A stretch of 64,000 nucleotides of DNA from Bacteroidetes bacterium GWF2_35_48 (GCA_001769125.1 MEOG01000073.1:14834-78833); one strand, 5' to 3'; positions 38,271 to 60,277 are shown, counted from the stretch's first letter. Notes: generated from the sequence alone by a model not told the origin. A program made the numbers and translations.

Positions 38271-39242
38271 ATGAAAACAAAATTTTTTATTTTATCAGTT
38301 TCCGCTCTGGCATTGATAACGAGTATTGCAAATGCTCAGCTTATTAACCCGGGATTTGAAACATGGACAAACGATATTCTTGTTCCAGCAGCTATGAATC
38401 CTAATAGTGGTAATGATACGTATGGATGGTGTGATTATAATTTTTTTAATAGTCCTTTAGCAGGAAACAGTCCTATTACAGTTACAAGATGTACTGATAC
38501 TGTACGCACTGGGAATTACTCTGTTCGTTTAGAAAGTAAGGTTTACACACCAACATCGTGGAATATTTATAAATACTGGGGCATTCCATTTATAGGTCAT
38601 GAATATAATGATACTTTGGGAATTTTGTTTAATGGAAAACTTAATGTTACAAACCAGACTTTTATACCGGGAACAGCGTGTCCTCAAAATTTAGCTCAAT
38701 TTAAATTTTATTATCAATATCGCCCAAATGGAAATGATACAGCAGAATGTCGTGTTGCGTTAATGAGTGGCGACTCGCTGGTAGCAGGTGGTGCATTTAA
38801 AACAAGTACTGCAACAGCGGGTTCGGGCTGGCAAGAGGCCGTGATTGATTTTACTTATATAAGCGGATTAACGCCCGATACTTTATATGTTTTGTTTAGC
38901 TCCACATCTCTCGATTATAGTCCCCGTAGCGGAAGCGTACTCTGGATAGATGATGCAAGTTTTGTATTTCCGACAGGTGTTGAACAGATTCTCGAAGAAG
39001 AAAGCAACGTGACAATTTTTCCTAATCCATCAAACGGTGCTTTTTCTATACGGAATTTGCAAGGAAACAATAATCAGCAAATCATAGAAATTTACAATTT
39101 ACTCGGAGAAAAAGTTTATTATGCTTTTTATAAAGATAAATCAATGCTCGATGTTGATATTTCTTCTTCTTCAAGAGGAATTTATTTTGTGAAATTTTTT
39201 GATGAGGGAAAAATCAATATTGAAAGAATTGTAATACAATAA
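38271..39242 (+). CDS. secreted protein of unknown function with T9SS C-terminal domain
   Basis: Signal peptide and C-terminal IFPNPSNGAFSIRN...GIYFVKF. Confidence 0.55.
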   Translation: MKTKFFILSVSALALITSIANAQLINPGFETWTNDILVPAAMNPNSGNDTYGWCDYNFFNSPLAGNSPITVTRCTDTVRTGNYSVRLESKVYTPTSWNIYKYWGIPFIGHEYNDTLGILFNGKLNVTNQTFIPGTACPQNLAQFKFYYQYRPNGNDTAECRVALMSGDSLVAGGAFKTSTATAGSGWQEAVIDFTYISGLTPDTLYVLFSSTSLDYSPRSGSVLWIDDASFVFPTGVEQILEEESNVTIFPNPSNGAFSIRNLQGNNNQQIIEIYNLLGEKVYYAFYKDKSMLDVDISSSSRGIYFVKFFDEGKINIERIVIQ

Positions 39243-39446: not shown

Positions 39447-40145
39447 TTACATTATTTTTTCAATCAGATGCTCTGTCTTTTCTCTTATGGATTCATACAT
39501 TGTATGCTTCAGAATATCGAATTCAGTTTTTGCATAAGTACCTGTTATTTTTTTGTTTTCAAGACGGTAAATTTTATCACAGACCGATTCAAGGGATTCG
39601 AAAATATGCGAGGTTATTATAATTGTTTTTCCATTTTGTTTCATGCGCGATAAAATATTTTTCAGAATTTGCACTGTTTCAATATCCAATCCGTTAAAGG
39701 GTTCATCGAGCATCAGCATTTTTTTATCTTGCTTCATTAGTGCGAATATTGCAAGTTTTTTTTTCATGCCGGTAGAGTAATTTTCTATCAACTCGTTTAA
39801 GGGTAACTGAAATAATTCCTGCCATTCTTCAATCTTGAATTTTTCATTTTGTTTTGGAAAAATTTTCAGATATTCTTTTCCTGTAATGCCCGGATAGAAA
39901 TAATTTCCGGTTTCAAGAAACGATATATCTTTTCTTTGTATTTTTTTATTATCCAATAAAATTTCTCCCGAAACAGGTTTCACAAATTGAAAAAAACAAT
40001 TCAGCAAAGTTGTTTTACCAGAGCCGTTCAGACCAACAAGACCGTGTATCAATCCTGAATCTAAAATTAGATCAAGATTTTCAAGCACAAGATTTTTTTC
40101 GTAAGCAACACAAAGTTTATTTATTGTAAGCATTGAGATATACAT
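39447..40145 (-). CDS. ABC transporter ATP-binding protein
   Basis: Walker A GLNGSGKTT, signature YSTGMKKK, Walker B LMLDEP. An alternative start lies at 40133. Confidence 0.85.
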   Translation of the reverse strand: MYISMLTINKLCVAYEKNLVLENLDLILDSGLIHGLVGLNGSGKTTLLNCFFQFVKPVSGEILLDNKKIQRKDISFLETGNYFYPGITGKEYLKIFPKQNEKFKIEEWQELFQLPLNELIENYSTGMKKKLAIFALMKQDKKMLMLDEPFNGLDIETVQILKNILSRMKQNGKTIIITSHIFESLESVCDKIYRLENKKITGTYAKTEFDILKHTMYESIREKTEHLIEKIM

Positions 40146-41067
40146 TAAGATTTTTACCTGCTTTTATAAAGTTACGAATGGTTAAAAGAAGCGGTACAGG
40201 AAGAAAAAACGGCAGCGCAATGCTTATTAATACAAGAGCTTTCATGATTTCATTTCCTGTTACAGATTTTCCTGCTTCATACAAAGAATATTTTGAAACA
40301 ATAAAATAGCACATGATAATAAATGTAAATAACACGAAAAAGCAAACTACCCACCATGTTTCAGGATGTATAAGCGTACTTAAAATTATAACAGGACTAA
40401 TGAACAGCAGGTATAATTTACAATGATTTTTAATTTTCTGAAGAAGAAATTTTTTTACAGGAATTTCGTTGGCGCGTAATATTTCAAAGGATTCGCCATG
40501 ATTGTAAAATTCAGAAATGATCATGAAAAGAAACCATAATACAAAAAGACTTGCATAAGGATAATATAACAATGCCAAAGAAGCAGCATAGAGCACTACA
40601 ATCCAAATCTGATATTTTCTGAAACCGGCTTTCCATTCAAAATTGTTGTCAGGAATAAATCTGTTCAAAGGTGCTGTAGATTTTAAACGGGCAGGGGTAT
40701 AGGAAATTAAACTGAGAAAAAATAAAAGCATAGCCCAGAGCATACTTAGATACCAGACTCCTGATGCAATCAGAATAATCCATAAAGGACTTGAAAAAAC
40801 AAGGTATTCAGAAAAATAAATTATATTTTTTTGCTGTGTGATATGCGATAAAAACCTTTTGTCTTTTCTGTTGATATGAATAAAAAAGAGTATTAAAAAT
40901 GCTAAAGAAAGAAGAATCAATTGTTCCGGAAATTTTTTTGCATTATGAAAGCAGTTATAGCCAAGATAAATCAGAACAAGTAATAAAAACAAATAGTGGA
41001 CGAGGGTCATTCCTTTGAGTTGCCTCTTCAACTGCTGTATTCGGAGTATTATGAATTGCTTTATCAT
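40117..41067 (-). CDS. polytopic membrane protein, probable permease partner of the ABC ATPase
   Basis: 316 aa with about 8 hydrophobic segments. It overlaps the ATPase gene. No motif recognised. Confidence 0.5.
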   Translation of the reverse strand: MIKQFIILRIQQLKRQLKGMTLVHYLFLLLVLIYLGYNCFHNAKKFPEQLILLSLAFLILFFIHINRKDKRFLSHITQQKNIIYFSEYLVFSSPLWIILIASGVWYLSMLWAMLLFFLSLISYTPARLKSTAPLNRFIPDNNFEWKAGFRKYQIWIVVLYAASLALLYYPYASLFVLWFLFMIISEFYNHGESFEILRANEIPVKKFLLQKIKNHCKLYLLFISPVIILSTLIHPETWWVVCFFVLFTFIIMCYFIVSKYSLYEAGKSVTGNEIMKALVLISIALPFFLPVPLLLTIRNFIKAGKNLNVYLNAYNK

Positions 41068-41405
41068 TATTTTAAACAGTCAGTTCAATTGTTATCATTA
41101 CAAAGATTTTAAAATTTGTAAAAAATGTACATGCAAATAACGAATAGCTTTTAAATATAGTACTTGTTTGAAAGTTCATGTGCAAAGATGCAACATTTTT
41201 CATTCGCCCCCAAAAATTATCCGTTCATCAAACATTCCAATACATTTGACAACATAAAAGTATCCATTCATAAAATATGTTATAAAACATATATGGGGGG
41301 GGTAAAATCGGATGCTTTATTGTATTTTTACATAAGGTTTGGCCAAACCAATAGCGGATGCCGAAAAGCTTAATCAGAGTAGGCAAAATAAAAAATTGAA
41401 AGAGT

Positions 41406-41639
41406 ATGAAAAAACAAAAATTCAACAAAAAACTTGTTTTAAACAAGGAAACCATTGCGAAGCTGAATGGGGAAGAAATGAATGAGGTTAAAGGTGGGAC
41501 AGACACTATAAATACATTCGCTACAGTTTGCAATTCCGGTTGTGTAACTTGTCAAACTTGCGGAAACACTTGCAACACTTGTTATCCATGTATCGAAACA
41601 ATTCTACAAACATGTAATCCATCATGTTATTGTAAGTAA
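41406..41639 (+). CDS. lanA: lanthipeptide precursor (LanA) with Bacteroidetes-type double-glycine leader
   Basis: Leader MKKQKFNKKLVLNKETIAKLNGEEMNEVKGG (31 aa). The 46-aa core TDTINTFATVCNSGCVTCQTCGNTCNTCYPCIETILQTCNPSCYCK has 10 Cys and 12 Ser/Thr. It sits upstream of lanC/lanB/lanT. Confidence 0.85.
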   Translation: MKKQKFNKKLVLNKETIAKLNGEEMNEVKGGTDTINTFATVCNSGCVTCQTCGNTCNTCYPCIETILQTCNPSCYCK

Positions 41640-41650
41640 ACAAATTTTTT

Positions 41651-41679
41651 GAAAGGACATCTTGTATGTCCTTTCTTTT
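41651..41679 (+). terminator. rho-independent terminator/attenuator immediately after lanA
   Basis: GAAAGGACAT-CTTGT-ATGTCCTTTC followed by TTTT. Confidence 0.75.
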
Positions 41680-41700
41680 ATCAAAATAATATGAAAAATA

Positions 41701-43749
41701 ATGAAAAAAAACTTATTATTACTTGGATTTATCGTGTTTGTTTCTTTTGCACATGCGCAATGGCAGTGGCTAAATCCAAAACCACAAGGGAATTATCTTA
41801 GTTCTGTTCATTTTCCGTCACCACTCGTAGGTTATGCAGCCGGAGTGAATGGTACACTGATAAAAACAACAGATGGCGGCGTTGTATGGGAGAACTTAGG
41901 AAATGGGTATAATTATGATATAAATTCAATATTCTTTACAAGTGAACAAACCGGTTATTGTGTTGGAGCCAATGGGAGAATATTTAAAACCACCGATGGA
42001 GGTATAACATGGAGTATATCGAATGTATCTAGTCCTTATTGGTTATGGTCTGTTTATTTTATTACACCAGAAATAGGATTTGCATCCGGTTTAAATGGTA
42101 GGCTTTATAAAACCACAAATGCTGGTGTAACATGGACGTATAAACCAACTGGCACACAAAATCATTTATATTCAGTTTTTTTTGTTAATCAACAAATTGG
42201 TTTTGCAGTTGGCGATCAAGGAAGAATAATTAAAACTACAGATGGCGGAGAGACTTGGAACACATGTTTGAATGTTTCTAACCAGCAATTATGGTCTGTA
42301 TTTTTTACAGATTCAATAACAGGTTTTGCGTGTGGTTTAAACGGAACAATTCTAAAAACAACAGACTGTGGTGATACTTGGGAACAACAAATTACAAATA
42401 CTTATTTCAATTTTTATTCGATATTTTTCATCAATTCTTCAACAGGGTTTGCTACAGGAGAAACTGGAAGAATTATAAAAACAACAAATTCAGGAGCTAC
42501 ATGGGATCTTATTCAAACATCTTATTACGATTTGTTTAGTATTTGTTTTCCTGATGACACGCATGGAATTGCAGTCGGGTATGGCGGGAGTGTAGTCATA
42601 ACACATGATGCAGGTTTAAATTGGGAGTTTTCGGTTCCGCTTATTTTTGGTGAAATAAATTGTTTGTTTTTTTTAAATGACAGTATGGGTTATATCGGAA
42701 CAGAAAATGGAAAAATATTTAAAACAACAAATGGTGGCGATACATGGGATTTATCATCTGGAATTAGCAATAATAGCATTAACTCAATCTGGTTTAGTGA
42801 TCCCCAAAATGGAATGGCTGTAGGTAATGCAGGAACAATATTATCTACAGAAGATGGTGGGCAAAACTGGAGTATTGCAAATAGCACTGTTCAGGTTAAT
42901 CTCAACTCCATTTGCATGACAAATAACAGTACTGCTTTTATTGTTGGGGATAATGGAAAAATATATAAAACTTCTGATAATGGAGTTAACCTTACGCTGC
43001 AAATTAGCAATTTTACAGGTACTTTAAGATCTGTATATTTTATTGAACCAGTAACAGGTTATGCCTGTGGCGATAGCGGTATGATTATGCAAACGCTTGA
43101 TGCTGGTGTTACATGGGAGTCATATAATACAAATACAGGGAAGATTTTATATTCATTATTTTTTGTAAACAAAAACGTAGGCTTTGCTGTTGGAGAAAGT
43201 TATAAAACAATGAAAACAACAGATGGGGGTTATAATTGGATAAGTATAACTGTTGCGCAACTCCCAAGTATGTCTGATTATTTTACTTCAGTTTTTTTCT
43301 TGAATAATGATACAGGTTATACTGCCGGAATAAATGGTGTTATATGGAAAACGACAAATGGAGGCAATAGTTGGTCAAATGATAATAGTTGCACATCAAA
43401 TCACCTTAATGCAGTACAATTTACCAGTAACAATGTTGGATATGCAGTTGGTTTTGCGGGAAATATTATTAAATATACAGGGAATTCAACTGTTAATATA
43501 AATGAAAAATTAATTAATCAAGACGTAAGGATATATCCTAACCCTGTATCGAATATTACAACAATTGAAAACACTTGCCATTGCAAATCAAGCATAGATA
43601 TTTACAATATGGAAGGGAAAAAAGTTTTTACTCAAATAACAGAAGAAAAAATTGTACAAATAGATATATCAAAATTTCCTACAGGTATTTATTCTGTTCG
43701 TTTGAAAAATGCAAACGGTGTATGGGTAGATAGAATTGTGAAGATATGA
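41701..43749 (+). CDS. BNR/Asp-box (YCF48/sortilin-like) beta-propeller repeat protein with T9SS C-terminal domain
   Basis: More than 10 repeats of the I/Y-K-T-T-D/N-G-G-x-T/S-W motif. C-terminal IYPNPVSNITTIEN...GIYSVRL. Confidence 0.75.
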   Translation: MKKNLLLLGFIVFVSFAHAQWQWLNPKPQGNYLSSVHFPSPLVGYAAGVNGTLIKTTDGGVVWENLGNGYNYDINSIFFTSEQTGYCVGANGRIFKTTDGGITWSISNVSSPYWLWSVYFITPEIGFASGLNGRLYKTTNAGVTWTYKPTGTQNHLYSVFFVNQQIGFAVGDQGRIIKTTDGGETWNTCLNVSNQQLWSVFFTDSITGFACGLNGTILKTTDCGDTWEQQITNTYFNFYSIFFINSSTGFATGETGRIIKTTNSGATWDLIQTSYYDLFSICFPDDTHGIAVGYGGSVVITHDAGLNWEFSVPLIFGEINCLFFLNDSMGYIGTENGKIFKTTNGGDTWDLSSGISNNSINSIWFSDPQNGMAVGNAGTILSTEDGGQNWSIANSTVQVNLNSICMTNNSTAFIVGDNGKIYKTSDNGVNLTLQISNFTGTLRSVYFIEPVTGYACGDSGMIMQTLDAGVTWESYNTNTGKILYSLFFVNKNVGFAVGESYKTMKTTDGGYNWISITVAQLPSMSDYFTSVFFLNNDTGYTAGINGVIWKTTNGGNSWSNDNSCTSNHLNAVQFTSNNVGYAVGFAGNIIKYTGNSTVNINEKLINQDVRIYPNPVSNITTIENTCHCKSSIDIYNMEGKKVFTQITEEKIVQIDISKFPTGIYSVRLKNANGVWVDRIVKI

Positions 43750-43784
43750 AAATGTAATATAAGAATTGTAAAATATCAACTAAT

Positions 43785-44978
43785 ATGAAGCAAATAGAAA
43801 ATAAAATATATAATATTTGTAGCTTAATAAATGATGATGATAATCAAAAAAAAGAAATCGGGCTTCTTACCGGGAATAGTGGGTTTGCTATTTATTTGTT
43901 TGAAATCGGGTCAAAATATTCTGATGCAAACCATCAGGAAAATGCTACTGAAAAAATATACAATTGTATAAATTCAATAAATACAGGTAACTTTTCTCCA
44001 ACTTATTGTAACGGTGTTGCCGGGTTTTGTTGGACTTTAGAATATTTAGCGCAGAATGATTATGTTGACAATGCAGATATTGAAATAGTAAACAATTTTG
44101 ATGAATACCTTCACAATCAAATGATCCGCTTTATTCAACAAAAAAACTATGACTATCTTCATGGAGCTGTAGGCGTTGGTCTTTATTTTATTAAGAGAAG
44201 TAAACGAGATAAAAATGTAATTTCTTATTTAGACGAGCTTCTTGATATTTTAAAAGCGGTAAGTATAGAAGAAGCAGATGGAAGCTTAAAATGGAAATCT
44301 GTTGTTATTAATGAAACGGGACAGGAAGCTTTTAACCTTAGCCTGTCTCATGGTATTACCAGTATTATTGCTTTTACAGCAAAATTAGTAAAAGAAGATA
44401 TTTGCAGAGAAAAAGCACTGAATATTTTAGATGGTGCATTAAAATATTTATTAAAACATAAAAAGAACCCCCTTGAAAATATTGTTTATTTTCCCTCTTG
44501 GGTTGATGAAAATGATATTGCGCCAAAAGGTGGGAGAATGGCCTGGTGCTATAATGATTTAGGAATTGCTGCGGTTTTATATTGGGTAAGTGATGTAATT
44601 AAAGATGCTTCCTTAAAAAAACTATCTGTTGAAATTTTAACGTATCACTCAAATACAAGGGACTTAAAAAAAGCCGGAGTGGCAGATGCAGGTTTGTGCC
44701 ACGGTTCTGCAGGTATTGCACATATTTATTACCGAATGTTTTTTAATACAGGTATTGAAAGCTTTAGAGAAACAGCAGCCTTTTGGTTTGATGAAACACT
44801 AAAACTGGCAACATTTGATGATGGGCCTGCCGGTTATAAAGCATGGCATACAGAAAAGTACGGAGGCTGGGTAAGCGAATATGGAATATTGGAAGGTATT
44901 GCGGGCATTGGTTTGGCGATGCATTCTTATATAACAGGCACAGAACCTAAGTGGGATGAATGTTTATTGTTGAGTTAA
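43785..44978 (+). CDS. lanC: LanC-type lanthionine cyclase
   Basis: LSHGITS, WCYNDLG and GLCHGSAGIAHIY provide the zinc-ligand Cys/Cys/His contexts of LanC. Confidence 0.9.
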   Translation: MKQIENKIYNICSLINDDDNQKKEIGLLTGNSGFAIYLFEIGSKYSDANHQENATEKIYNCINSINTGNFSPTYCNGVAGFCWTLEYLAQNDYVDNADIEIVNNFDEYLHNQMIRFIQQKNYDYLHGAVGVGLYFIKRSKRDKNVISYLDELLDILKAVSIEEADGSLKWKSVVINETGQEAFNLSLSHGITSIIAFTAKLVKEDICREKALNILDGALKYLLKHKKNPLENIVYFPSWVDENDIAPKGGRMAWCYNDLGIAAVLYWVSDVIKDASLKKLSVEILTYHSNTRDLKKAGVADAGLCHGSAGIAHIYYRMFFNTGIESFRETAAFWFDETLKLATFDDGPAGYKAWHTEKYGGWVSEYGILEGIAGIGLAMHSYITGTEPKWDECLLLS

Positions 44979-44996
44979 GGTTTATAAAAGTAAGGC

Positions 44997-47210
44997 ATGA
45001 ATCCATATAAAGCATTTAATACCTGCATACTCAGAACGCCTCTTTTCTCATTAGAAAAATATCAGGAATTTTTAAACTTGTTTAACTCCATTGATAATAA
45101 CGTTTCTTCATTTATTGATGACCTTGTTATTATGGAAGCTCTTTTTCTGGCATCCCCAGAATTTTATCAGGAATTGTTAAAGTTGAATAAGGAAAGTTTA
45201 CAAGTAAAGGATAGGAACAAAATTATTTTTTCGTTATATAAATATCTGTCGCGCGCTTCAACAAGATGCACGCCATTCGGTCTTTTTGCAGGCTTTTCCA
45301 GTGGCTTGTTAAGTGATCAAACATCCATCATTGAAAATACCGGAGTAGTAAATTACAAACGACATACGCGATTAGACATGAATTATCTGTGTGCGCTTGC
45401 CTCTAATCTTTCCAAAGATGAAAAATTAAAAAATAAGCTTACCTATCATACAAATAACAGCCTTTATTTTGATGGCTTGCGTTTTAGAATGGTTGAGTAC
45501 AGATATAGAAATGCAAAACGAGAACATTATATTGTTTCTTTTGATGATACGCCCTATTTTAGAGCTATTATTGATAAAGCAAAAGTGGGGGTCTGTTTTA
45601 CAGAATGTGTTGCGGAATTAATAACCGATGATATTTCTGAAGAAGAAGCAACAGAATATGTTTATACTCTTATAGAATCACAGGTGCTTGTCAGCGAACT
45701 GGAGCCTACTGTTACAGGGCCTGATTTTTTTGACCGCGTTCTTAATTTAATAAACAATTTTGAGGAGCTTGATGATATAAAAAACAATTTGAAAGAGCTA
45801 CAGTTTAAATTAAGTGAAATAAACAAACAAGTGCTGGGTATTCCTGTTTCAAGATACAATGAAATAACAAACTTTTTATCAGAAAAAGAAACAAAATTCG
45901 AGAAAAAATTTTTGTTTCAGTGCGATTTATTAAATGCTGCACAAGATTTTACAATCAATAAAAGCATTGCTCAAAATATTTTAGAAGCCTTGACATTTTT
46001 AAATGCGTTTACAAAAACATATAAGACAAATCTGCAAAATTTTAAAGAAGCGTTCTTTGCCAGATATGAAACAATGGAAATTCCTTTATTACAGGCATTG
46101 GATGTTGAAAGTGGCATTGGCTATGCACAAAGCGCAGGACAGGACAAAGGCGATATTTCACCTTTAGTTGCAAAGCTGCATGTTTTTGGAAAACAAACTG
46201 GTGAAACAGAAATTAAATGGACGGCTTTTCAAAATCTTCTTTATAAAAAATTCTTGCTTGCTTTTCAAAACAAAGAGCATGTAATCACACTTTGCGATGA
46301 GGATATTCAAGAAATGAAACCGGAATGGTCAGATTTACCTCCCACGATTTATTCGATGGTTGAGGTGTACTGCAAAGAAAATAAAGAAAATGAAATATAT
46401 TTGAATTCATTAGGAGGGAGCTCTGCCGGTAACCTTATCGGTCGTTTTGCGCATGCTGATGATAAAACATTTGATTTACTCAAAGAGATTGCAGATTTTG
46501 AAGCAGAATATTACAAAGATAAAATAGTAGCAGAAATTGTTCATTTGCCGGAAACAAGAACGGGAAACGTGCTTTACAGACCTGTTGTAAGAGAATATGA
46601 AATTCCTTATTTAGCGCAGTCATGCGTACCAAAAAACAAACAAATACAAATAGACGATTTATACATTTCGGTAAGAAATAATAAAATTGTTTTAAGGTCA
46701 AAGTTATTTAATTCAGAAATCATACCACGCCTTACCAATGCGCATAATTATTCTTTTAATGCCTTACCGGCATATCAATTTTTATGCGATATGCAAGCGC
46801 AGGATTTAAGAACAGGTTTTTATTTTAACTGGGGATTTTTATCGAATCAATACGGGTTTTTACCAAGAGTAGTTTATAAAAATATTATTTTGTCTAAGGC
46901 AACATGGAATATTCAGGTATCAGAATTAAAAAGTATTATAGACGAAAAAACCGAAGAAAAAAAGTTTGAAGCATGGCTGAATTGGAGAAAGATAATGAAC
47001 ATCCCGAAACTTGTTTCACTTGTTGATGGCGATAATGAACTGACTATTGATACTGAACATAAAATATCGGTATTTACATTATTGTCTTTAATTAAAAAGC
47101 GGATGTCTTTTAAATTAGAAGAGTTTCTTTTTTCACGGGAGAACAGCCCTGTGCAGGGTCTTGAAGGAACTTATACCAATCAGTTTATTTTCACATTTTA
47201 TAAAAGCTGA
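44997..47210 (+). CDS. lanB: lanthipeptide dehydratase, N-terminal glutamylation part of a split LanB
   Basis: 737 aa. ILRTPLFS and SRASTRCTPFGLFAG are typical of the Lant_dehydr_N family. Confidence 0.9.
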   Translation: MNPYKAFNTCILRTPLFSLEKYQEFLNLFNSIDNNVSSFIDDLVIMEALFLASPEFYQELLKLNKESLQVKDRNKIIFSLYKYLSRASTRCTPFGLFAGFSSGLLSDQTSIIENTGVVNYKRHTRLDMNYLCALASNLSKDEKLKNKLTYHTNNSLYFDGLRFRMVEYRYRNAKREHYIVSFDDTPYFRAIIDKAKVGVCFTECVAELITDDISEEEATEYVYTLIESQVLVSELEPTVTGPDFFDRVLNLINNFEELDDIKNNLKELQFKLSEINKQVLGIPVSRYNEITNFLSEKETKFEKKFLFQCDLLNAAQDFTINKSIAQNILEALTFLNAFTKTYKTNLQNFKEAFFARYETMEIPLLQALDVESGIGYAQSAGQDKGDISPLVAKLHVFGKQTGETEIKWTAFQNLLYKKFLLAFQNKEHVITLCDEDIQEMKPEWSDLPPTIYSMVEVYCKENKENEIYLNSLGGSSAGNLIGRFAHADDKTFDLLKEIADFEAEYYKDKIVAEIVHLPETRTGNVLYRPVVREYEIPYLAQSCVPKNKQIQIDDLYISVRNNKIVLRSKLFNSEIIPRLTNAHNYSFNALPAYQFLCDMQAQDLRTGFYFNWGFLSNQYGFLPRVVYKNIILSKATWNIQVSELKSIIDEKTEEKKFEAWLNWRKIMNIPKLVSLVDGDNELTIDTEHKISVFTLLSLIKKRMSFKLEEFLFSRENSPVQGLEGTYTNQFIFTFYKS

Positions 47211-47215
47211 TACAA

Positions 47216-48103
47216 ATGCAAACAAGCAGATATTTCATCCCCGGTAGTGAATGGCTGTATTATAAAATTTACTGCGGTCCGAAAACGGCAGATACAATCA
47301 TCGAAAATGTTTTTCTTCCGGTAAGCTCAAAGCTTTTTGAAAATAGCCTTATAAAAAAATGGTTCTTTATCCGTTATTCTGATTCAGATCTTCACCTACG
47401 TTTCAGAATTCTTTTAAATGACCGTTGTTAAATAGGACTTGTTATGCAAATGGTATATGAATATTTGTTGCCCTATGTCGAAAAATTAATAGTTCATTCT
47501 ATTACAACTGATACCTATAAAAGAGAAATTGAACGTTACGGAGAAAACAGTATTGAGCATCTTGAAACTTTATTTTATTATGACAGCGAGTTTATCGCGA
47601 ATATTATTTCTTCAACGGAAGGAGAAGAAGGAGAACAGATAAAGTGGCAAATTTGTTTGCGTACGCTTGATGAATTATTAAATTTATTTGGATTTGATTT
47701 CCAACAAAAACATCAGCTATTAAAGACTTTGAGTTTAGGTTTCATGAATGAATTCGGAACAGAAAAAAATATGGACCCGCAAATAAGCATAAAGTACAGA
47801 GAAAGTAAAAAACAGGTAGAGGTTTTTTTAAATTGTAGTTTAACAGAGGATAATGAACTCCTTCCATTATTTATATTTCTTGAAAATTATAAAAAAAGAG
47901 CACAGCCTGTAATTTCAGAAATTATCGAAAAATTTTCCATACAGCAAATCAATATACCGATGAATGACTTAATAGGCAGCTATTTTCACATGCACTGCAA
48001 CCGTTTATTTCGCACAAAACAAAGGCTGCATGAAATGATAATTTATTCATATTTGGAAAGATACTATAAGTCTTTTATTGCACGTGAAAAAATGAAAATA
48101 TAG
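47216..48103 (+). pseudogene. split-LanB glutamate-elimination domain (thiopeptide-type bacteriocin biosynthesis domain) interrupted by one in-frame TAA
   Basis: ORFs 47216-47431 and 47444-48103 share a frame: ...WFFIRYSDSDLHLRFRILLNDRC-TAA-IGLVMQMVYEYL...TDTYKREIERYGENS. Together they span the full ~295-aa domain. Confidence 0.75.
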
Positions 48104-48118
48104 TTATAATTGTTTTTG

Positions 48119-48162
48119 TCTGCGCCAATCCGCCTCATCCGCGTAATCCGCATTCAAAAACA
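48119..48162. repeat. GC-rich 'ATCCGC...TTCAAAAA' intergenic element upstream of lanT
   Basis: TCTGCGCCAATCCGCCTCATCCGCGTAATCCGCATTCAAAAACA is related to the elements at 50435-50601. Confidence 0.6.
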
Positions 48163-48239
48163 TTTATAAATCTACTAAATAATAAACCCGCATTCCAATA
48201 AAATATTATCTTCGCAAGCAATAAAAACAATTCACAATT

Positions 48240-50429
48240 TTGGCAAAGTTTCCCTTTTATAAACAACTTGATGCAATGGATTGCGGACCCTCGAGTCTGC
48301 GCATGATAGCCAAGCATTACGGTCGTTCCTACACACTGCAAACACTGCGCGATAAATGCTATATCACCCGGGAAGGTGTTTCTCTTATGGGAATCAGCGA
48401 TGCAGCGGAAAGCATCGGGTTGCATACAATGGGTGTGCGTATCAACTGGGAAACACTTACTAAAGAAGCACCTCTGCCTTGTATTGCACACTGGAAACAA
48501 AATCACTTTGTTGTAGTATATAAAATTAAAAAAAATAAAGTTTTTGTTGCCGACCCTGCCATTGGGCACATTGAATATTCTCAGAAAGAATTTCTCGAAA
48601 GCTGGCTCAGTACTCGCACAGAAGGAGAAAATAAAGGGATATGCCTTTTAGTGGAACCTACACCTGAATTCTATAAAGACAAAGGAGAAACCATAGATAA
48701 GAGCAATACCTCCTTTTTGTTTTCGTATCTGCGACCACATAAAAAGTTATTACTTCAATTGTTCTTTGGTCTGATTATCGGCAGCCTTATTCAATTAATT
48801 TTTCCATTTCTTACACAGTCGGTTGTTGATTTTGGGATTAGTAATAATAATATTGGATTTGTCTGGTTGATATTAATTGCGCAGCTCACATTGTATATCA
48901 GCCGTACTTCCGTTGAATTTATCCGTAGCTGGATATTACTGCATATCAGTGCGCGTATTAATATTTCACTCATATCTGATTTTCTCGTCAAACTGATGAA
49001 ATTGCCTATATCTTTTTTTGATATTAAAATGATTGGCGACCTGTTACAGCGCATTGGAGACCATTCGAGGATACAAAATTTTCTTACAACTTCCACATTG
49101 GAATTTTTATTTTCATTTGTCAATTTTTTAATATTCGGAGCCATTCTTGCTGTTTACAGCATTAAAATTTTTGCAGTATTTTTGATTGGCACCCTTTTGT
49201 ATATTCTTTGGATTTTTATCTTCCTTAAACGTCGTCGCAGTCTTGATTACAAACGTTTCGCGCAGTTGTCCGAAAATCAAAGCACTTTAATTCAGCTCAT
49301 CACAGGAATGCAGGAAATAAAACTCAATAATTGTGAAAAACAAAAACGCTGGGATTGGGAAAAAGTGCAGGCACGTCTTTTTAAAATAAATATAAAGTCA
49401 TTATCATTGGCGCAATACGAGCAGGCAGGATCTTTATTTTTGAATGAACTTAAAAATATTTTTATCTCTTTTATTGCAGCAAAATTAGTTATTGAGGGAC
49501 AGCTCACGCTTGGAATGATGCTTGCCGTGCAGTATATCATCGGGCAGTTAAATGCGCCGGTGCAACAGCTTATTGGCTTTATTCATGCGCTTCAGGATGC
49601 AAAAATAAGTCTGGAACGTCTTGGAGAAATTCACAAAAAAGAAGACGAAGAACAAACCGAAGAAGGCAGAATGACTGTGATTCCGGAAGAGAGCAATCTC
49701 AATATCAATAATGTTTTTTTTCAGTACGAAGGCCCACATTCTGAAATGGTTTTGCACGATATTAATCTTGTAATTCCTTACAATAAAACCACAGCTATTG
49801 TTGGTGGCAGTGGCAGTGGAAAAACAACATTGGTAAAATTGCTGTTAGGTTTTTATCCGCCCGTGAAAGGAGAAATATTAGTTGGTGGTTTCCGCATAGA
49901 TACAATAAGTACACGCTTATGGAGACAAAACTGTGGCACCGTAATGCAAGACGGTTTTATATTCAGTGATACCATTGCAAAAAACATTGCTGTAAGTGAT
50001 GAAACAATAGACAAAGAGCGACTTGTGCTTGCTGCAAGAACTGCAAATATTCATGAATTTGTCATGTCGCTTCCTTTACGTTTCAATACAAAAATTGGTG
50101 CAGACGGACACGGATTGAGCCAGGGACAAAAGCAAAGGATTTTAATAGCGCGTGCAGTTTATAAAGATCCGGCTTTTCTATTTTTCGATGAAGCAACCAA
50201 TGCGCTCGATGCAAATAATGAAAAAATTATTATGAATAATTTGGATGAATTTTTTAAAAACAGAACTGCTGTTGTGGTTGCTCATAGGTTGAGTACTGTA
50301 AAAAATGCAGACCAGATTGTGGTGTTGGAAAAAGGTCGTATCGTAGAAAAAGGAACGCATGCAGAATTGATTGAAACAAAAGGGGCGTATTATGAACTTG
50401 TAAAAAATCAGTTGGAGATTGGAAGTTAG
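48240..50429 (+). CDS. lanT: bacteriocin/lanthipeptide ABC exporter with N-terminal C39 double-glycine peptidase domain
   Basis: QLDAMDCGPSSLRMIAKHYG (C39 catalytic Cys), HFVVVYK (His), six TMs, Walker A GGSGSGKTT, LSQGQKQR, FFDEATNALD. The start is the TTG at 48240 and is uncertain. Confidence 0.9.
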   Translation: MAKFPFYKQLDAMDCGPSSLRMIAKHYGRSYTLQTLRDKCYITREGVSLMGISDAAESIGLHTMGVRINWETLTKEAPLPCIAHWKQNHFVVVYKIKKNKVFVADPAIGHIEYSQKEFLESWLSTRTEGENKGICLLVEPTPEFYKDKGETIDKSNTSFLFSYLRPHKKLLLQLFFGLIIGSLIQLIFPFLTQSVVDFGISNNNIGFVWLILIAQLTLYISRTSVEFIRSWILLHISARINISLISDFLVKLMKLPISFFDIKMIGDLLQRIGDHSRIQNFLTTSTLEFLFSFVNFLIFGAILAVYSIKIFAVFLIGTLLYILWIFIFLKRRRSLDYKRFAQLSENQSTLIQLITGMQEIKLNNCEKQKRWDWEKVQARLFKINIKSLSLAQYEQAGSLFLNELKNIFISFIAAKLVIEGQLTLGMMLAVQYIIGQLNAPVQQLIGFIHALQDAKISLERLGEIHKKEDEEQTEEGRMTVIPEESNLNINNVFFQYEGPHSEMVLHDINLVIPYNKTTAIVGGSGSGKTTLVKLLLGFYPPVKGEILVGGFRIDTISTRLWRQNCGTVMQDGFIFSDTIAKNIAVSDETIDKERLVLAARTANIHEFVMSLPLRFNTKIGADGHGLSQGQKQRILIARAVYKDPAFLFFDEATNALDANNEKIIMNNLDEFFKNRTAVVVAHRLSTVKNADQIVVLEKGRIVEKGTHAELIETKGAYYELVKNQLEIGS

Positions 50430-50434
50430 AACTT

Positions 50435-50601
50435 GGATGACGCAGATAAACGCACAAGAAAACAATCAACGAAATCAGCGTGAAAAAAAAGAAGAAGCTG
50501 CCGCAGATGACGCAGGTAAACGAAGATTTACGCTGATAGAAAATTATAGAAAAAAATAAGCGAATATCTGCTGCATCCGCAAAATCAGTGTTCAAAAAAC
50601 A
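50435..50601. repeat. two tandem copies of a GATGACGCAGRTAAACG...AATCAGYGTKxAAAAAA element between lanT and hlyD
   Basis: GGATGACGCAGATAAACGCA...AATCAGCGTGAAAAAAAA is followed by GCAGATGACGCAGGTAAACGAA...CATCCGCAAAATCAGTGTTCAAAAAACA. Confidence 0.6.
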
Positions 50602-50635
50602 GAAAACAGAATATACAAAATCAGCATTCAAAAAA

Positions 50636-51973
50636 ATGTCAGAAGAAAGCGAACATATAGAATTACGCAGCGAAGAAGTCCAAGAGATTCTTGGTCATGT
50701 GCCGCCCGGTGTTATCCGTTGGGGAATTTCTGTTATTTCAGCTATTGTAATTCTTCTTTTAGTTGCAAGCTGGTTCATAAAATATCCGGAAATAATTATT
50801 TCTCCTGTAACAGTTACAACACAAAATCCTCCTGTTACATTGGTTTCAAAAATGAACGGAAAAATTTCAAAACTTTTTGTGAAAGATAAGCAACGAATTA
50901 AATCAGGTTCTGTTATTGCTGTGATTGAAAACCCAACAGATTTCAATGATGTTTATACACTCAAACAAAAGCTCGATTCCTTCCGTGTTGTACTTATGAA
51001 AATTCAGATTTCTGAAAACAGGCAAACCGCGCTTTACGCTGTAGATTCAACGCAAAAAGTATTTTTTGATGAAAATCTCAATCTTGGAGAAATGCAGACC
51101 TGGTATGGCGCATTTCTGAAAAGTATGGCAGATTTTTCACATTTTATACATACCGATTATCATCAGAAAAAAATATTTACAGTACAAGACCAGATTGCTA
51201 AGTACAACCAACTTTACACACGTCTGCTGAAACAACAAAATATTCTATCAGAAGAGCTTTCTATTGACAGGCAGCAATTCAGCAGGGATTCTAATCTTTT
51301 CGCAAAAGGTGTTCTTGCAAAAGCAGATTTTGATAAATCGAAATCTTTTCTTTTACAGAAAAGGTATTCTTTTGAAGGATCTAAATCAACACTTTCTAAT
51401 ACACAGATACAAATATCACAATTGCAACAGTCAATTTTTGATTTGCAACAGCAGCATGAAGATCAGAACAAACAATTAAAGCTGGCGCTTTCTCAGGCAT
51501 ACGAAAATCTTATTGGTCAGATAAAAATATGGGAGCAGAATTATGTGTTTACTTCACCTGTTGACGGCATCATAACTTTTACAAAATATTGGAACGAAAA
51601 TCAAAATATTCTTTCCGGGGATAAGGTTGTAACTATCATTCCTGAAGCAGAAAGCCGCTCTATTGGAAAACTTCAATTGCCCATACGTGGTTCGGGGAAA
51701 GTAAAAACCGGTCAGAGCGTAAACATAAAATTAGACAATTATCCTTATATGGAATACGGAATGTTACGGGGAAAAATAGAATCCATCTCATTAGTTTCTT
51801 CAGATGATTCCTATGCGGTAGAAGTAAGCATGCCGAATGGTCTTTTGAGTTCCTACGGAAAAAAACTTGAGTTCAGCCATGATATGAAAGGGACTGCTGA
51901 AATCATTACAGAAGACGAACGTTTGATAATGCGTTTTATTAATCCGCTTCGTGCTTTGCTTGCCGGTAGTTGA
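50636..51973 (+). CDS. HlyD-family membrane fusion / secretion adaptor protein
   Basis: ATG at 50636 (MSEESEH...). One N-terminal TM, a coiled-coil middle, and a beta-barrel C-terminus (GQSVNIKLDNYPY...GKIESIS), typical of bacteriocin HlyD partners. The GTG at 50588 lies inside the repeat element. Confidence 0.8.
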   Translation: MSEESEHIELRSEEVQEILGHVPPGVIRWGISVISAIVILLLVASWFIKYPEIIISPVTVTTQNPPVTLVSKMNGKISKLFVKDKQRIKSGSVIAVIENPTDFNDVYTLKQKLDSFRVVLMKIQISENRQTALYAVDSTQKVFFDENLNLGEMQTWYGAFLKSMADFSHFIHTDYHQKKIFTVQDQIAKYNQLYTRLLKQQNILSEELSIDRQQFSRDSNLFAKGVLAKADFDKSKSFLLQKRYSFEGSKSTLSNTQIQISQLQQSIFDLQQQHEDQNKQLKLALSQAYENLIGQIKIWEQNYVFTSPVDGIITFTKYWNENQNILSGDKVVTIIPEAESRSIGKLQLPIRGSGKVKTGQSVNIKLDNYPYMEYGMLRGKIESISLVSSDDSYAVEVSMPNGLLSSYGKKLEFSHDMKGTAEIITEDERLIMRFINPLRALLAGS

Positions 51974-52014: not shown

Positions 52015-52992
52015 TCACAAAGAAACAACTTTCAAATTATCATCTGCAAGCTCAATTTTACAAGGAAGAAATCCATAAGGGTCACCGTCAAATTCAACAG
52101 CTGCATTGGGATTTCCTTTTATTGATAGAGAAGTACAATAAGTCAGTTCAATAATTTTACTTTTTTTAATTTTTTTTCCGCTGTACACAGAATACAATGC
52201 TTTTGGTAAGTTTAGTAAATTTAATTTCTTAATAGTAAGATTATAAAAATGCCGATCGTCTTGCTGCAAATCGTGATTAACTTTTATTCCTGAAGCAATA
52301 AATCGTGTGATTCCGGCTGAGAGATTAAAGAGTTTTTCAATATGTTTTTTTTCTCCATCTTGTTCGAATATAAAATCGCTGGGTTTATATTTTATTATTG
52401 CTGAAATAAGAGATATAAATGTTCCGACTGCATCGCCCAGGTATTTTCTGATACCGCTGTTGGCCATACTTGCGGTTGCTGCTCCCAATCCGATATTTAC
52501 ACAGCATGCAAAATAATTTACTTCCGTTTCTGATGCAGGAACTTCTTCGATTGCACAACCAATATTTTGAAAATTTTTATTTTTACACAGCAAAATTTTT
52601 CCGATAGGGATATTACGGGTTTTATTTTGGTAAATAGCGTCAAGAGCGGCATTGAGATGTATCGGAATATTGTAAGATTTACAGAAATCAGGACTGGTTC
52701 CCGTGTAAATTACTGCAAAGATTGCATTTGAAATTTTAATCCCTTCCTTATCATAAAAACCATTCAGTACACGATTGATTGTCCCGTCCCCACCAACAGC
52801 AACAATGATATCAAATCCGTTTTGGTTTGCTTTAACTGATAAATCGTACGCATCATCGAGATTTTTTGTAATTGCGTATTCAAATTGTAAATTTTTTTCT
52901 TTGAAAAAAGTAAGAATTTTATCAATTTTATTTTGACTTTTTCCTCCTTTGGAACCGGGGTTGATGATTAAAAAGTAACGTGTGGAAGACAT
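52015..52992 (-). CDS. diacylglycerol-kinase-catalytic-domain lipid kinase (YegS/BmrU family)
   Basis: YFLIINPGSKGGK and IIVAVGGDGTINRVLNG. Confidence 0.85.
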   Translation of the reverse strand: MSSTRYFLIINPGSKGGKSQNKIDKILTFFKEKNLQFEYAITKNLDDAYDLSVKANQNGFDIIVAVGGDGTINRVLNGFYDKEGIKISNAIFAVIYTGTSPDFCKSYNIPIHLNAALDAIYQNKTRNIPIGKILLCKNKNFQNIGCAIEEVPASETEVNYFACCVNIGLGAATASMANSGIRKYLGDAVGTFISLISAIIKYKPSDFIFEQDGEKKHIEKLFNLSAGITRFIASGIKVNHDLQQDDRHFYNLTIKKLNLLNLPKALYSVYSGKKIKKSKIIELTYCTSLSIKGNPNAAVEFDGDPYGFLPCKIELADDNLKVVSL

Positions 52993-53033
52993 TTTGGTTT
53001 TTTCTTGTGTTTTGTTTTAATCGGCAACAACGT

Positions 53034-54197
53034 TTATTTCATAGAGCGTATCAGCATTGCTGCTTTTTGAACAATATCATCCGATAAATTTGCGCCTGTT
53101 ATCAATCTTATTCTGCCTTGTTTTTCGGGTACTGATGGAAAAATAAAAGGGGTTGTAAGGATTTTATTTTTATAAAATTCATAAGCCAATCGTAATGTTT
53201 GTTCAGAGTTTCCGGCTTCTATGGACATAATGGGAGTTTCGCTTTGTGCAATGCTAAATCCTGCTGCAACCAGTGCTTCCTGAATTGTTTTTTTATGGCG
53301 AAACATTCTTTCTTTAATGCTAGAAAAATCTTCTTCAATAATTTCAAGAACTTTGATAATTCCTCCCAGCACCGATGGAACAATCGCAGTAGAATATATA
53401 AGGTGCGAGCTGTTATACCGAAGAAAATCTATGATTGTTTTATTCCCTCCAATCATTCCTCCTGAATTGGCAATGGCTTTTCCGAGTGAAGCAGTATAAA
53501 TACCGTTGAAATCAGAAATACAGCTTATAGCACCTTTTCCTTTATCTCCGATAACGCCTATTCCATGAGAATCATCTATGATAAAAACAGCATTGTATTT
53601 ATTGCAAAGCTCATTAATTTCCTGCAAAGGAGCTATAGAGCCTTCTGTCGAAAAAACAGATTCGGTTACAACAAACACCTGCTCAAAATCATTTGCTTTT
53701 TTTAACAATTCTTCAAGGTGGCTGGTGTTATTATGCAGAAAAGGTCTGAATTTACAAGACGCTGCTTTTATCCCTTCAACAAGCGAAGAATGGGCATAAT
53801 GGTCAACTATTATAAGATCGTTTTTTTCCGTGATTACTTTGAATACTGCATTGTTGGCTTGATAGCACGATGGATAAATAATGCAATCTTCAACACCAGT
53901 GAATTTTGAAAGTAACACAGCGGCCTCCTGAAAAATTTTACATGCACCTCCTGCAATTGGCGTTGCGCAGATGGAGAGTCCATAATCCCGTATTGCTTTT
54001 ATTGATGCTTCTTTTACTCGTATATCATCTGCCAAACCTAAATAATTATTTGTTGCAAGATTAATAAATTCATCGTTTTCTATAAGAAGCGTATTTCCAA
54101 GTGATGATTGCAAAACCGCATAGTAAGGATTAAAACCAAGCCTGTCAACAATAGATGAGTCAAGATAAAGGCGTTTCAGGAATGTTTCGTTTTTCAT
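53034..54197 (-). CDS. alpha-oxoamine synthase family PLP enzyme (serine palmitoyltransferase / AONS / KBL-like)
   Basis: NNYLGL, DHYAHSS, IIDDSHGIGVIGDKGKG, and TASLGKA (PLP Lys). Confidence 0.88.
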   Translation of the reverse strand: MKNETFLKRLYLDSSIVDRLGFNPYYAVLQSSLGNTLLIENDEFINLATNNYLGLADDIRVKEASIKAIRDYGLSICATPIAGGACKIFQEAAVLLSKFTGVEDCIIYPSCYQANNAVFKVITEKNDLIIVDHYAHSSLVEGIKAASCKFRPFLHNNTSHLEELLKKANDFEQVFVVTESVFSTEGSIAPLQEINELCNKYNAVFIIDDSHGIGVIGDKGKGAISCISDFNGIYTASLGKAIANSGGMIGGNKTIIDFLRYNSSHLIYSTAIVPSVLGGIIKVLEIIEEDFSSIKERMFRHKKTIQEALVAAGFSIAQSETPIMSIEAGNSEQTLRLAYEFYKNKILTTPFIFPSVPEKQGRIRLITGANLSDDIVQKAAMLIRSMK

Positions 54198-54341
54198 GGA
54201 TTTGTTTTTGTTTGTATTTATTTTTTAAGTCGGAAGACAAAAGCCAGTGGCTGAACCTGAGCTTGCTGAGCTAAGCCGAAGCGGGTTGCAGAGTTAAGCC
54301 GAAGCCGGTGGCTGAGCCTGTCGAAGCCCCGGATTCGTGGA
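54198..54341. repeat. GC-rich repeat-containing spacer inside the operon (between ACP and AOS genes)
   Basis: Internal direct repeats are AGCCAGTGGCTGAACCTG / AGCCGGTGGCTGAGCCTG and GAGCTAAGCCGAAGC / GAGTTAAGCCGAAGC. It contains GCTGAGCCTGTCGAAGC. Confidence 0.6.
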
Positions 54342-54575
54342 TCAAGCAACCCCGTATTTCTCGAGTTTTTCAATAATATCATTTACCGTTACCAATCCAT
54401 CAATATCTTCATCTTTTATTGTGATGTTAAACTCGTCTTCAACAGCGTTGAGCAGCATAATACGTCCGAAAGAATCCACTTCAAGATCGTCTACCAATCT
54501 GCTTTCCGGTTTAACCTCTGTCTGGTTTTCCATATTTTTAGAAATTACTTTTATTACACGTTCTTTAATTGTCAT
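54342..54575 (-). CDS. acyl carrier protein
   Basis: 77 aa. DLEVDSFGRIML matches the DSL/DSF phosphopantetheine attachment motif. Confidence 0.85.
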   Translation of the reverse strand: MTIKERVIKVISKNMENQTEVKPESRLVDDLEVDSFGRIMLLNAVEDEFNITIKDEDIDGLVTVNDIIEKLEKYGVA

Positions 54576-54580
54576 TTGAT

Positions 54581-55780
54581 TTATTTGTTTTTAAATTTAT
54601 AGCATTTTGTTATCTTTCCACTATCACACATGACGGAGCAAAAGTTGCAATTTATACATTTTGATTTATAATGTAAATTTTCCTGAATTTTTTTTACAAT
54701 ATCCGGTTCGCAAATAAAGGGGCGGCACATTGAAACATAATCTATTCCTGCATTTATTGCTTCATTTATATCATCAAGATTTCTGTAGCCTCCCACTGAA
54801 ATAATCGGAAGTTTCGTATGTTCTCTTGCAATAAGTGCATATTTAATATTATACTTTGATGAAAAAGATTTTATTTGTCTTTTAATAACAGGTGCTGCCA
54901 GTACTTTCCATAAGGTATTATATATTTTTCCATGCCCTTTATAAAAAGGATTTATTTTTAAAATAAGATCGAGAGGTATGTCGCCACGAATTATATTCAG
55001 TGCCACATCCATGGTTCCATAACTAATTTCTAATGCATCAACATTTATTGTGTTGATAAATTGAATCAGATGAATATATTGTTGCTCTGAAAAAGCGAGT
55101 TTTCCGTCAGCACTGCCACTTATTTTAAGAATTACAGGGAAGTCATCCCCGCAATCAATTCTTATTTTTTCTATTACACTTTGCAGAAATGCAGTACCCA
55201 GTCTGGTTTTTTCATCAATTCCAAAAATATCTTTTCTGTTATTAATTGCAGGTAATAAAAATTGATGTATCAGATAACCGTGTGCGGCATGCACCTGAAC
55301 ACCGTCAAATCCTGCTTCTTTAGCCCATTTGGCGCTTTGTGCAAATTGATTAATTATTTCTTTAATTTCAGATGTGGATAAAGTCTCTGGTTTGCTTTTA
55401 AAATAGGGAGAAGCTTTTGATGAGGCACCTCTGACTTTTTGTACCCTTTCATTTATGGTTTGACGACCTGTATGCGCAAGCTGAATAAAAATTTTGCTTC
55501 CATTACGATGAACTTCATCTGTGATTTTTTTGTACAGCATGGCTTTTTCATGATTATCAAAGCCGCCTTGCGCATTCTGCATCGCTTTCCCATCAGGAGC
55601 GACATGCACAAAACCAGTAATGATAAGTCCCGGTTTACCGGCAGAAAGCTCTGAATACATTTTGAAATAATCATTGCCGGGAATACCATCAGGACTGCAT
55701 GCGCCTTCATACGTTGCAGAGCGCACGATACGATTAGTAAGTCTGCAATTTCCAATATATGATTCTTCAAAGGCTTTCAT
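54581..55780 (-). CDS. Old-Yellow-Enzyme-family NADH:flavin oxidoreductase with C-terminal Cys cluster
   Basis: FIQLAHTGRQ, GFDGVQVHAAHGYLIHQFL, and C-terminal CINCNFCSVMC. Confidence 0.85.
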   Translation of the reverse strand: MKAFEESYIGNCRLTNRIVRSATYEGACSPDGIPGNDYFKMYSELSAGKPGLIITGFVHVAPDGKAMQNAQGGFDNHEKAMLYKKITDEVHRNGSKIFIQLAHTGRQTINERVQKVRGASSKASPYFKSKPETLSTSEIKEIINQFAQSAKWAKEAGFDGVQVHAAHGYLIHQFLLPAINNRKDIFGIDEKTRLGTAFLQSVIEKIRIDCGDDFPVILKISGSADGKLAFSEQQYIHLIQFINTINVDALEISYGTMDVALNIIRGDIPLDLILKINPFYKGHGKIYNTLWKVLAAPVIKRQIKSFSSKYNIKYALIAREHTKLPIISVGGYRNLDDINEAINAGIDYVSMCRPFICEPDIVKKIQENLHYKSKCINCNFCSVMCDSGKITKCYKFKNK

Positions 55781-56757: not shown

Positions 56758-56769
56758 GGTATAAATTCT

Positions 56770-58086: not shown

Positions 58087-58103
58087 CGCCCCATGGGGCG
58101 ATG
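58084..58103 (-). promoter_or_regulatory. perfect 20-bp GC-rich palindrome overlapping the rSAM start codon
   Basis: CATCGCCCCATGGGGCGATG is its own reverse complement. The 3'-arm ATG (58086-58084) is the annotated start. Confidence 0.6.
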
Positions 58104-58110
58104 TTACAGT

Positions 58111-60254: not shown

Positions 60255-60277
60255 TTGGTCATTAAATATTAATAAAT

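Follow-up and report, generated by a model that had tools for sequence, protein, structure and literature searches.

Bacteroidota hold a large store of class I lanthipeptides, as yet hardly exploited, from which, to our knowledge, pinensins alone have been isolated natively, a few others having been made heterologously. Here we describe a locus at positions 39447-51973 of a 64,000-nucleotide (nt) stretch of DNA from Bacteroidetes bacterium GWF2_35_48 (the whole stretch is hereafter called the window). By mapping and translating its open reading frames (ORFs), applying the curated Pfam and NCBIfam cut-offs to them, and comparing the locus with its relatives, we conclude with good confidence that it is a class I lanthipeptide gene cluster of the Bacteroidota type, that its glutamate lyase gene is split by a fixed TAA stop codon, and that it is most likely blocked or impaired. 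Elimination is the step most likely blocked, because the TAA puts the glutamyl-binding arginines and the catalytic histidine of the lyase on different polypeptides; because the nonsense codon thus divides the lyase active site, production of a mature lanthipeptide is doubtful. The locus adds one more cluster to a well-described Bacteroidota class I kind, and its precursor is a near-orphan.

A class I lanthipeptide cluster

An original prediction made from the same DNA had placed lanA, a BNR gene, lanC, lanB-N, a C39 ATP-binding cassette (C39-ABC) exporter gene and hlyD in that order along the locus, and each of these ORFs was found where it had been placed. The biosynthetic and export genes (lengths in amino acids, aa) are the following:

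41406-41639, + strand: lanA precursor, 77 aa (NF038153 lant_leader_L1a, 52.3 bits, cut-off 22)
43785-44978, + strand: LanC cyclase, 397 aa (PF05147, 138.8 bits, cut-off 23)
44997-47210, + strand: LanB glutamylation protein (LanB-N), 737 aa (PF04738, 489.9 bits, cut-off 28)
47216-47431, + strand: glutamate lyase N-fragment, 71 aa (PF14028, 68 bits; TIGR03891, 65 bits)
47444-48103, + strand: glutamate lyase C-fragment, 219 aa, frame shared with the N-fragment (PF14028, 143.6 bits)
48240-50429, + strand: C39-peptidase ABC exporter, LanT-type, 729 aa, TTG start (PF03412, 127 bits, cut-off 22; PF00664, 111 bits; PF00005, 101 bits)
50588-51973, + strand: HlyD-family membrane-fusion (periplasmic adaptor) protein, 461 aa (PF13437, 50.5 bits)

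All core genes, lanB-N and lanC among them, pass their curated profile hidden Markov model (HMM) thresholds by wide margins; the HlyD protein scores 120 bits against TIGR01843, under the cut-off of 208.65. The predicted combination of LanC and a split LanB with a double-glycine (GG) leader and C39-ABC/HlyD export is borne out by the curated profiles; so is the stated lack of a LanP gene, as no S8/LanP-type protease occurs among all window ORFs of at least 150 aa. The gene identities, like the catalytic motifs, leader type and synteny reported below, are direct observations on the locus and its relatives.

The chemistry, ring formation and export route we infer as follows. LanA would be expressed from a short 5' untranslated region (UTR) bearing a DUF805b element; the 737-aa LanB-N would glutamylate Ser and Thr residues of the core using Glu-tRNA(Glu); the separate glutamate lyase would remove the glutamate to give dehydroalanine (Dha) or dehydrobutyrine (Dhb); the zinc enzyme LanC would join the 10 Cys thiols into (methyl)lanthionine rings; and the C39-ABC transporter would cut after Gly-Gly and export the product together with HlyD.

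A fixed nonsense codon in the lyase gene

The original prediction had counted the elimination gene, "lanB-C", as a single ORF, which it is not: translation of 47216-48103 meets one internal stop, a TAA at 47429-47431, that parts two ORFs of the same frame (71 and 219 aa), the second with an ATG 12 nt past the TAA. The PF14028 model aligns through its positions 1-56 with the 71-aa piece and through positions 65-255 of 255 with the 219-aa piece, and one domain has therefore been cut in two. Public assemblies list the C-fragment as a separate protein of 217-219 aa.

Exact-protein look-ups found the locus in at least 19 contigs (NCBI metagenome-assembled genomes, or MAGs; ENA; JGI; and Logan), which bear the names Bacteroidetes bacterium GWF2_35_48, RIFOXYA12_FULL_35_11, RIFOXYC12_FULL_35_7 and TPA Bacteroidales bin and belong to an uncultured Rifle-aquifer Bacteroidetes population. 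The TAA and its flanks are identical in all 12 contigs that span the site, within 13 kb at ~100% identity. Of the 43 long ORFs in the window, 29 end in TAA, lanA included, which makes it the commonest stop there. On the grounds that 12 assemblies are identical and that TAA is a normal stop here, the stop codon is genuine and not an error.

For comparison, 51 related loci were drawn from across Bacteroidota (including Prolixibacteraceae, Flavobacterium, Pedobacter, Chryseobacterium, Sphingobacterium and Maribacter) by a scan of one genome per species (185,579 species genomes); their LanB-N proteins are 35-46% identical to the present one. Protein relatives of the core and the lyase were sought in a collection of 5.8 billion proteins. 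A sense residue occupies the stop position in 49 of the 50 related loci compared, and this residue is variable (N, A, H, K, R and others). The 120 best lyase relatives range in length from 273 to 385 aa, all but one of them within 283-326 aa, and span 91-100% of the joined sequence; a 217-aa self-hit is the sole exception. To judge from these sequence comparisons, the stop is a derived lesion. The nearest lyase relative is 47% identical and the nearest LanB-N 46%, and no closer relatives by which the nonsense mutation might be dated were found among the proteins and genomes scanned.

Decay of the lyase gene is not rare: disrupted lyase genes occur in three of the 51 related loci (L006, L008 and L022), or in four of 52 with the present locus counted. 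The lyase of L006 (12238-13099) has a frameshift near residue 210, and that of L008 (2902-3630) has an in-frame stop within the ERYG motif. The lyase of L022 (Flagellimonas oceanensis, 12241-12865) is cut short after about residue 70 by an inserted element, a transposase-like ORF starting at that point.

A divided active site

Alignment of the family profile to NisB (4wd9, native numbering) gave the following residue equivalences:

NisB R784 and R786: R62 and R64, on the 71-aa fragment
NisB E823 and R826: E104 and R107, on the 219-aa fragment
NisB H961: H258, on the 219-aa fragment

In NisB, elimination depends critically on R784 and R786, which bind the glutamyl gamma-carboxylate (PMC9486935), and the H961A variant shows no dehydration (PMC4341554). 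The PF14028/TIGR03891 domain is present with all of these catalytic equivalents kept, and the protein is therefore an anti-elimination-type lyase with a catalytic His; but R62/R64 and R107/H258 stand on separate ORFs, and neither fragment alone holds the complete active-site set.

An AlphaFold2 model of the joined lyase has a predicted local distance difference test score (pLDDT) of 89; its TM-scores against the MadB, NisB and MibB elimination domains, which it resembles, are 0.6-0.73. The break is predicted to fall in the loop between beta3 (60-67) and alpha2 (74-89) of the N-terminal ferredoxin-like module. Fragment 1 would supply beta1-alpha1-beta2-beta3, or three of the four strands of this module, so that the sheet would be shared between the fragments.

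Is the pathway functional?

On balance, we favor the reading that the elimination step is blocked or severely impaired and that the cluster is a recently decaying one. Several observations weigh against it. Across the two fragments all 35 of the 35 invariant lyase-family columns are retained, both fragments score well above the Pfam threshold, nothing apart from the single TAA appears degraded, and the remaining cluster genes are all full length. The ATG that follows the stop lies close enough that termination-reinitiation could yield both pieces, and the predicted break falls at a variable position within a surface loop, the type of site that permits split-protein reassembly. In addition, the assemblies are ~100% identical and hence give no population-genetic information on selection, and our search for a second PF14028 lyase gene, which found none, covered the 64-kb window of the genome.

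The retained residues, the variable loop position, the ATG 12 nt downstream and the otherwise intact cluster together make the case for a functional system, either as a three-piece LanB (71- and 219-aa chains made by stop-restart and assembled non-covalently) or with a lyase provided in trans by another cluster in the genome. The allele is moreover fixed in all sampled assemblies, and several LanB sets are frequent in Bacteroidota genomes (L010 and L051 are examples). We nevertheless regard a functional cluster as possible but doubtful: the split is unseen in the 120 best relatives or the 50 compared loci, two chains would have to make up both the active site and the ferredoxin-like sheet, the disrupted lyase genes of the relatives resemble plain decay, and no second PF14028 gene lies within the window. 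If the split lyase were active, it would reveal where the elimination domain tolerates cutting, which would be of modest value for enzyme engineering.

A bolder form of this idea is that the nonsense codon is tolerated, that stop-restart gives a two-chain lyase and hence a natural three-piece LanB, and that the product is a 46-residue thioether ladder with at most 10 thioethers, the CVTCxTCxxxCNTCxxCxPC block of the core becoming a ladder of overlapping methyllanthionine rings; we think this rather unlikely as a whole. Such a ladder draws on the Thr-Cys spacing repeats of the core, which by analogy with nisin rings D and E would permit a chain of overlapping methyllanthionine rings. In a less likely variant, elimination would be lost and the exported product would be a glutamylated or free-thiol peptide, a metallothionein-like metal binder with CxxC repeats, by analogy with the pinensins and zinc.

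That the TAA arose as an artefact of sequencing or assembly, the true gene being an intact lyase of ~295 aa, is very improbable. Many of the assemblies come from the same aquifer data sets and could have a systematic error in common; but the 12 identical assemblies stem from different groups and assemblers and from several samples, the site (CGTTGTTAAATAGG) is not a homopolymer, and the lesion is a substitution-type in-frame stop with no indel. Readthrough or recoding of the TAA into a full-length lyase has nothing specific in its favor beyond the common frame of the two ORFs, and we give it hardly any credence, as TAA, the commonest window stop, interrupts no other gene; an alternative genetic code was rejected on the same stop-codon usage. 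Nor do we give appreciable weight to the idea that lanA is the substrate of a radical S-adenosylmethionine (radical SAM) maturase, LanBC being irrelevant: lanA does reach 25.3 bits (cut-off 25) against TIGR04149, a radical-SAM GG-leader family, and the window holds radical SAM/SPASM genes at 27350-28402 and 56770-58086, but lanA matches the class I lanthipeptide leader model with a far higher score, the radical SAM genes lie 13-15 kb off on other transcription units, and lanA heads a lanC-lanB operon as in the related loci.

The precursor peptide

LanA consists of the leader MKKQKFNKKLVLNKETIAKLNGEEMNEVKGG and the core TDTINTFATVCNSGCVTCQTCGNTCNTCYPCIETILQTCNPSCYCK, whose 46 residues include 10 Cys, 10 Thr and 2 Ser. 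The leader carries the LxLxKx5L motif in the form LVLNKETIAKL and ends in EEMNEVKGG, with GG at -2/-1 and hydrophobic residues before it at -4, -7, -12 and -15. Further precursors were sought in the window and none was found, lanA being the sole such ORF.

The core has one relative only in the 5.8 billion proteins, P0002, at 53% identity, and has no identical match. P0002 is 78 aa long with a leader that ends in AG, and its core, SGASCVTCATCPASCNTCPSCPPCLTYTCTVDPCHQPTLNEHTCACK, contains 11 Cys; the block CVTCxTCxxxCNTCxxCxPC and a C-terminal CxCK are common to both cores. It is encoded on two contigs (L071, 2032-2268; L072, 1707-1943), with lanC directly after it and a gene for a protein with a type IX secretion system (T9SS) tail upstream; both contigs are too short to reach its LanB. 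Among ~60 precursors of the same leader type from the related loci the cores are hypervariable, and the lanA core is unrelated to them. As had been predicted, it is unusually Cys-dense: 22% Cys, against at most 19% in the ~60 related cores, P0002 alone being denser (23%). The further prediction that the product is likely new stands as far as the near-orphan core goes, but it presupposes a working pathway, and the lyase gene carries a fixed nonsense codon.

Other core enzymes and the exporter

LanC matches PF05147 over model positions 5-350 of 350 and carries the zinc and acid-base motifs SHG (188), WCY (254) and CHG (305), which align to the same motifs of a solved LanC-like protein (8byk); its best NCBIfam match is the LanM C-terminus. 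LanB-N matches PF04738 (Lant_dehydr_N) over positions 4-647 of 649 and aligns to residues 37-690 of NisB (4wd9) and 5-692 of MadB (9g04), ending at the point where the elimination domains of these two proteins begin. The C39 domain of the exporter is closest to LahT150 (6mpz, E = 7e-24, the best PDB match) and PCAT1. Its catalytic residues are Cys15 (DCG), His89 (NHF) and Asp105 (ADP), all three of which align to LahT150 counterparts, Cys15 and Asp105 also to those of PCAT1. No outer-membrane factor gene was found within the cluster.

Relation to known systems

The original prediction had presented the hybrid architecture of the locus as remarkable, but it is the norm of the phylum: the lyase has an ORF of its own immediately behind LanB-N in 51 of 51 related loci. 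In most of them lanC, lanB-N and the lyase gene are colinear, with lanC usually directly upstream; C39-ABC/HlyD genes are nearby in about half, and in about 20 hlyD keeps synteny with the C39-ABC gene. The synteny of the present locus is the same as in these relatives, those of Pedobacter, Flavobacterium and Chryseobacterium included. The Pedobacter clusters (Caetano 2020; Ped15.1/15.2) reportedly belong to the Bacteroidetes LanA family with an LxLxKx5L leader ending in GG. Many class I LanAs of this kind were described from Bacteroidetes in the RODEO survey of Walker et al. 2020, with C39 proteases in the clusters, LanBs split "as in pinensin" and LanCs that resemble LanM cyclase domains (PMC7268733); the precedent that had been cited for a split LanB in Bacteroidetes is thus real. 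With this family (NF038153, PF28317) the present locus has in common the leader motif, GG site, C39 transporter and lack of LanP; unlike the family, it has a core unrelated to the ~60 cores of these precursors, a LanB-N at most 46% identical, and a BNR/T9SS gene that is peculiar to it.

The pinensin cluster of Chitinophaga pinensis (PinA, the split PinB1/PinB2, and PinC) is the founding Bacteroidota class I lanthipeptide cluster with a split LanB. The present locus resembles it in having glutamylation and elimination on separate polypeptides plus a LanC in a Bacteroidota host (PMC7268733, PMC9680876), and in a LanC type that groups with LanM cyclase domains; the pinensin enzymes were compared by description, the fetched loci including no pinensin locus. 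Pinensins are zinc-binding peptides of ~2 kDa (PMC13532221). The present core, by contrast, has 46 residues and 10 Cys and is without sequence resemblance to them, and the lyase gene of the present locus is also broken by a stop.

NisB, MadB and MibB, full-length class I dehydratases whose structures have been solved, are single chains of ~1000 aa, whereas here the same functions are spread over three ORFs; the boundary between LanB-N and the lyase is ancestral, and the second boundary is a lineage-specific nonsense codon. Exporters of the LahT/PCAT1 type, which serve class II lanthipeptides and bacteriocins, have in common with the present one the C39 Cys/His/Asp triad and the hydrophobic leader positions -4/-7/-12/-15; unlike them, the present transporter is paired with an HlyD adaptor in a diderm host, with no outer-membrane factor gene in the cluster.

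Accessory genes

Three further protein-coding genes lie within the interval:

39447-40145, - strand: ABC transporter ATPase, divergent from lanA (PF00005, 78 bits)
40117-41067, - strand: polytopic membrane protein, 316 aa, overlapping the ATPase gene by 29 nt
41701-43749, + strand: Ycf48-like BNR beta-propeller with a T9SS tail, 682 aa (PF14870, 178 bits in 7 stretches; PF18962, 52 bits)

The BNR gene begins 61 nt after lanA and ends 35 nt before lanC. Its predicted position in the gene order is real, but it has no conserved link to clusters of this kind: no BNR homolog was found in any of the 51 related loci, and the P0002 locus is without the gene, lanC there following lanA directly. The protein belongs to a family of >6000 secreted propellers, and its closest relatives (39% identity) have other T9SS cargo genes around them and are not in clusters for peptides that are ribosomally synthesized and then post-translationally modified (RiPPs). 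The BNR/T9SS protein as a component of the cluster is thus unsupported, and on these comparisons its gene is probably a lineage-specific passenger. An apparent "split BNR" variant in L070 was set aside as a scaffold gap of Ns. T9SS cargo genes (Por_Secre_tail) are unusually many in the window, at 4427-5875, 5905-7596, 19860-23318, 35498-38242 and 38271-39242 in addition to 41701-43749; this cargo includes a GH16 protein, a C10 peptidase with an I69 inhibitor domain, an M4 thermolysin-like protease and a purple-acid-phosphatase-like protein besides the BNR propeller.

The two minus-strand genes at the start of the interval were missing from the gene list of the original prediction, which was otherwise sound as to position. 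Of the NCBIfam models the ATPase matches TIGR03740 (lantibiotic protection ABC ATP-binding subunit) best, but its 115 bits fall far short of the cut-off of 309.75, so that it is not a member of that family. The 316-aa protein matches no Pfam or NCBIfam family, shows eight hydrophobic 19-mers in a Kyte-Doolittle scan, and appears in public MAG records as a hypothetical protein. With eight presumed membrane spans, it is presumably the permease partner of the ATPase, and one might guess that the two form a self-protection pump. A comparable ATPase lies near only one of the 51 related loci (L044), and the pair is not conserved beside related clusters.

Non-coding elements

Two non-coding features flank lanA:

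41351-41385, + strand: Rfam DUF805b motif, a small hairpin plus the conserved AGAGUAGGCA (RF02914, 45.3 bits)
41651-41675, + strand: terminator-like hairpin, a 10-bp stem followed by TTTTAT, found by consensus scan

The RF02914 match covers the full-length model (gathering threshold 35.6 bits, E = 2.8e-10) and leaves 20 nt between its end and the lanA ATG. Run over 1.04 Mb of the related loci, a covariance model made from DUF805b sites gave 13 significant instances, 10 of them ~20 nt upstream of lanA-type genes, with a covarying 3-bp stem. Sites before lanA include:

L001: 6769-6811, 7274-7316 and 9464-9506
L010: 17366-17407
L024: 9048-9087
L027: 57-96
L039: 8447-8489
L040: 8070-8111
L051: 13024-13065

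A metagenome scan with the conserved core returned 86 DUF805b sites, which precede by ~15-25 nt genes of very diverse kinds (for lipoproteins and secreted proteins, and small ORFs). As only about 11 of the 86 precede GG-leader peptides, DUF805b as a regulatory RNA specific to RiPP precursors was ruled out. Its distribution suggests a general Bacteroidota element, of 5'-UTR or promoter-proximal type, and not a lanthipeptide-specific switch. Nothing on DUF805b was found in the main text and supplements of Weinberg 2017.

The position directly after lanA is the usual place of an attenuator in lantibiotic operons, and by analogy the hairpin 3' of lanA is probably an attenuator that would set the ratio of precursor to enzymes. 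Directly upstream of the DUF805b motif, at 41336-41349, is a perfect 14-nt palindrome, GGTTTGGCCAAACC, which may be an operator site; a similar TGTTTAGGCCAAACA stands ahead of the motif in L037 and L038. Short ATCCGC repeats of 9-nt periodicity occur at 48128-48151 and 50566-50580, in both intergenic regions flanking the C39-ABC gene (3 matches, with 0.09 expected by chance), each then followed by TTCAAAAA(A)C.

Significance and neighbouring genes

A repaired cluster would probably yield a new, heavily cross-linked scaffold, because the precursor is a near-orphan and has the top Cys density among the ~60 related precursors. The locus also bears on genome mining: calls of the antiSMASH or HMM style would rate the cluster complete although one nonsense codon divides the lyase active site.

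Elsewhere in the window, a stand-alone radical SAM/SPASM protein (27350-28402, + strand) adjoins a DUF2207_C membrane protein, and no GG-leader peptide ORF was found near it. Beyond hlyD, a second biosynthetic-looking operon extends over 52015-62547 on the - strand. It encodes a lipid kinase of the DAGK type, a class I/II aminotransferase (alpha-oxoamine-synthase-like), an acyl carrier protein, an Old Yellow Enzyme, a UbiA prenyltransferase, a radical SAM/SPASM protein, an NAD-dependent epimerase/reductase, a ketosynthase and an AIR-synthase-like protein, and may represent a lipid pathway of the sphingolipid or sulfonolipid type.

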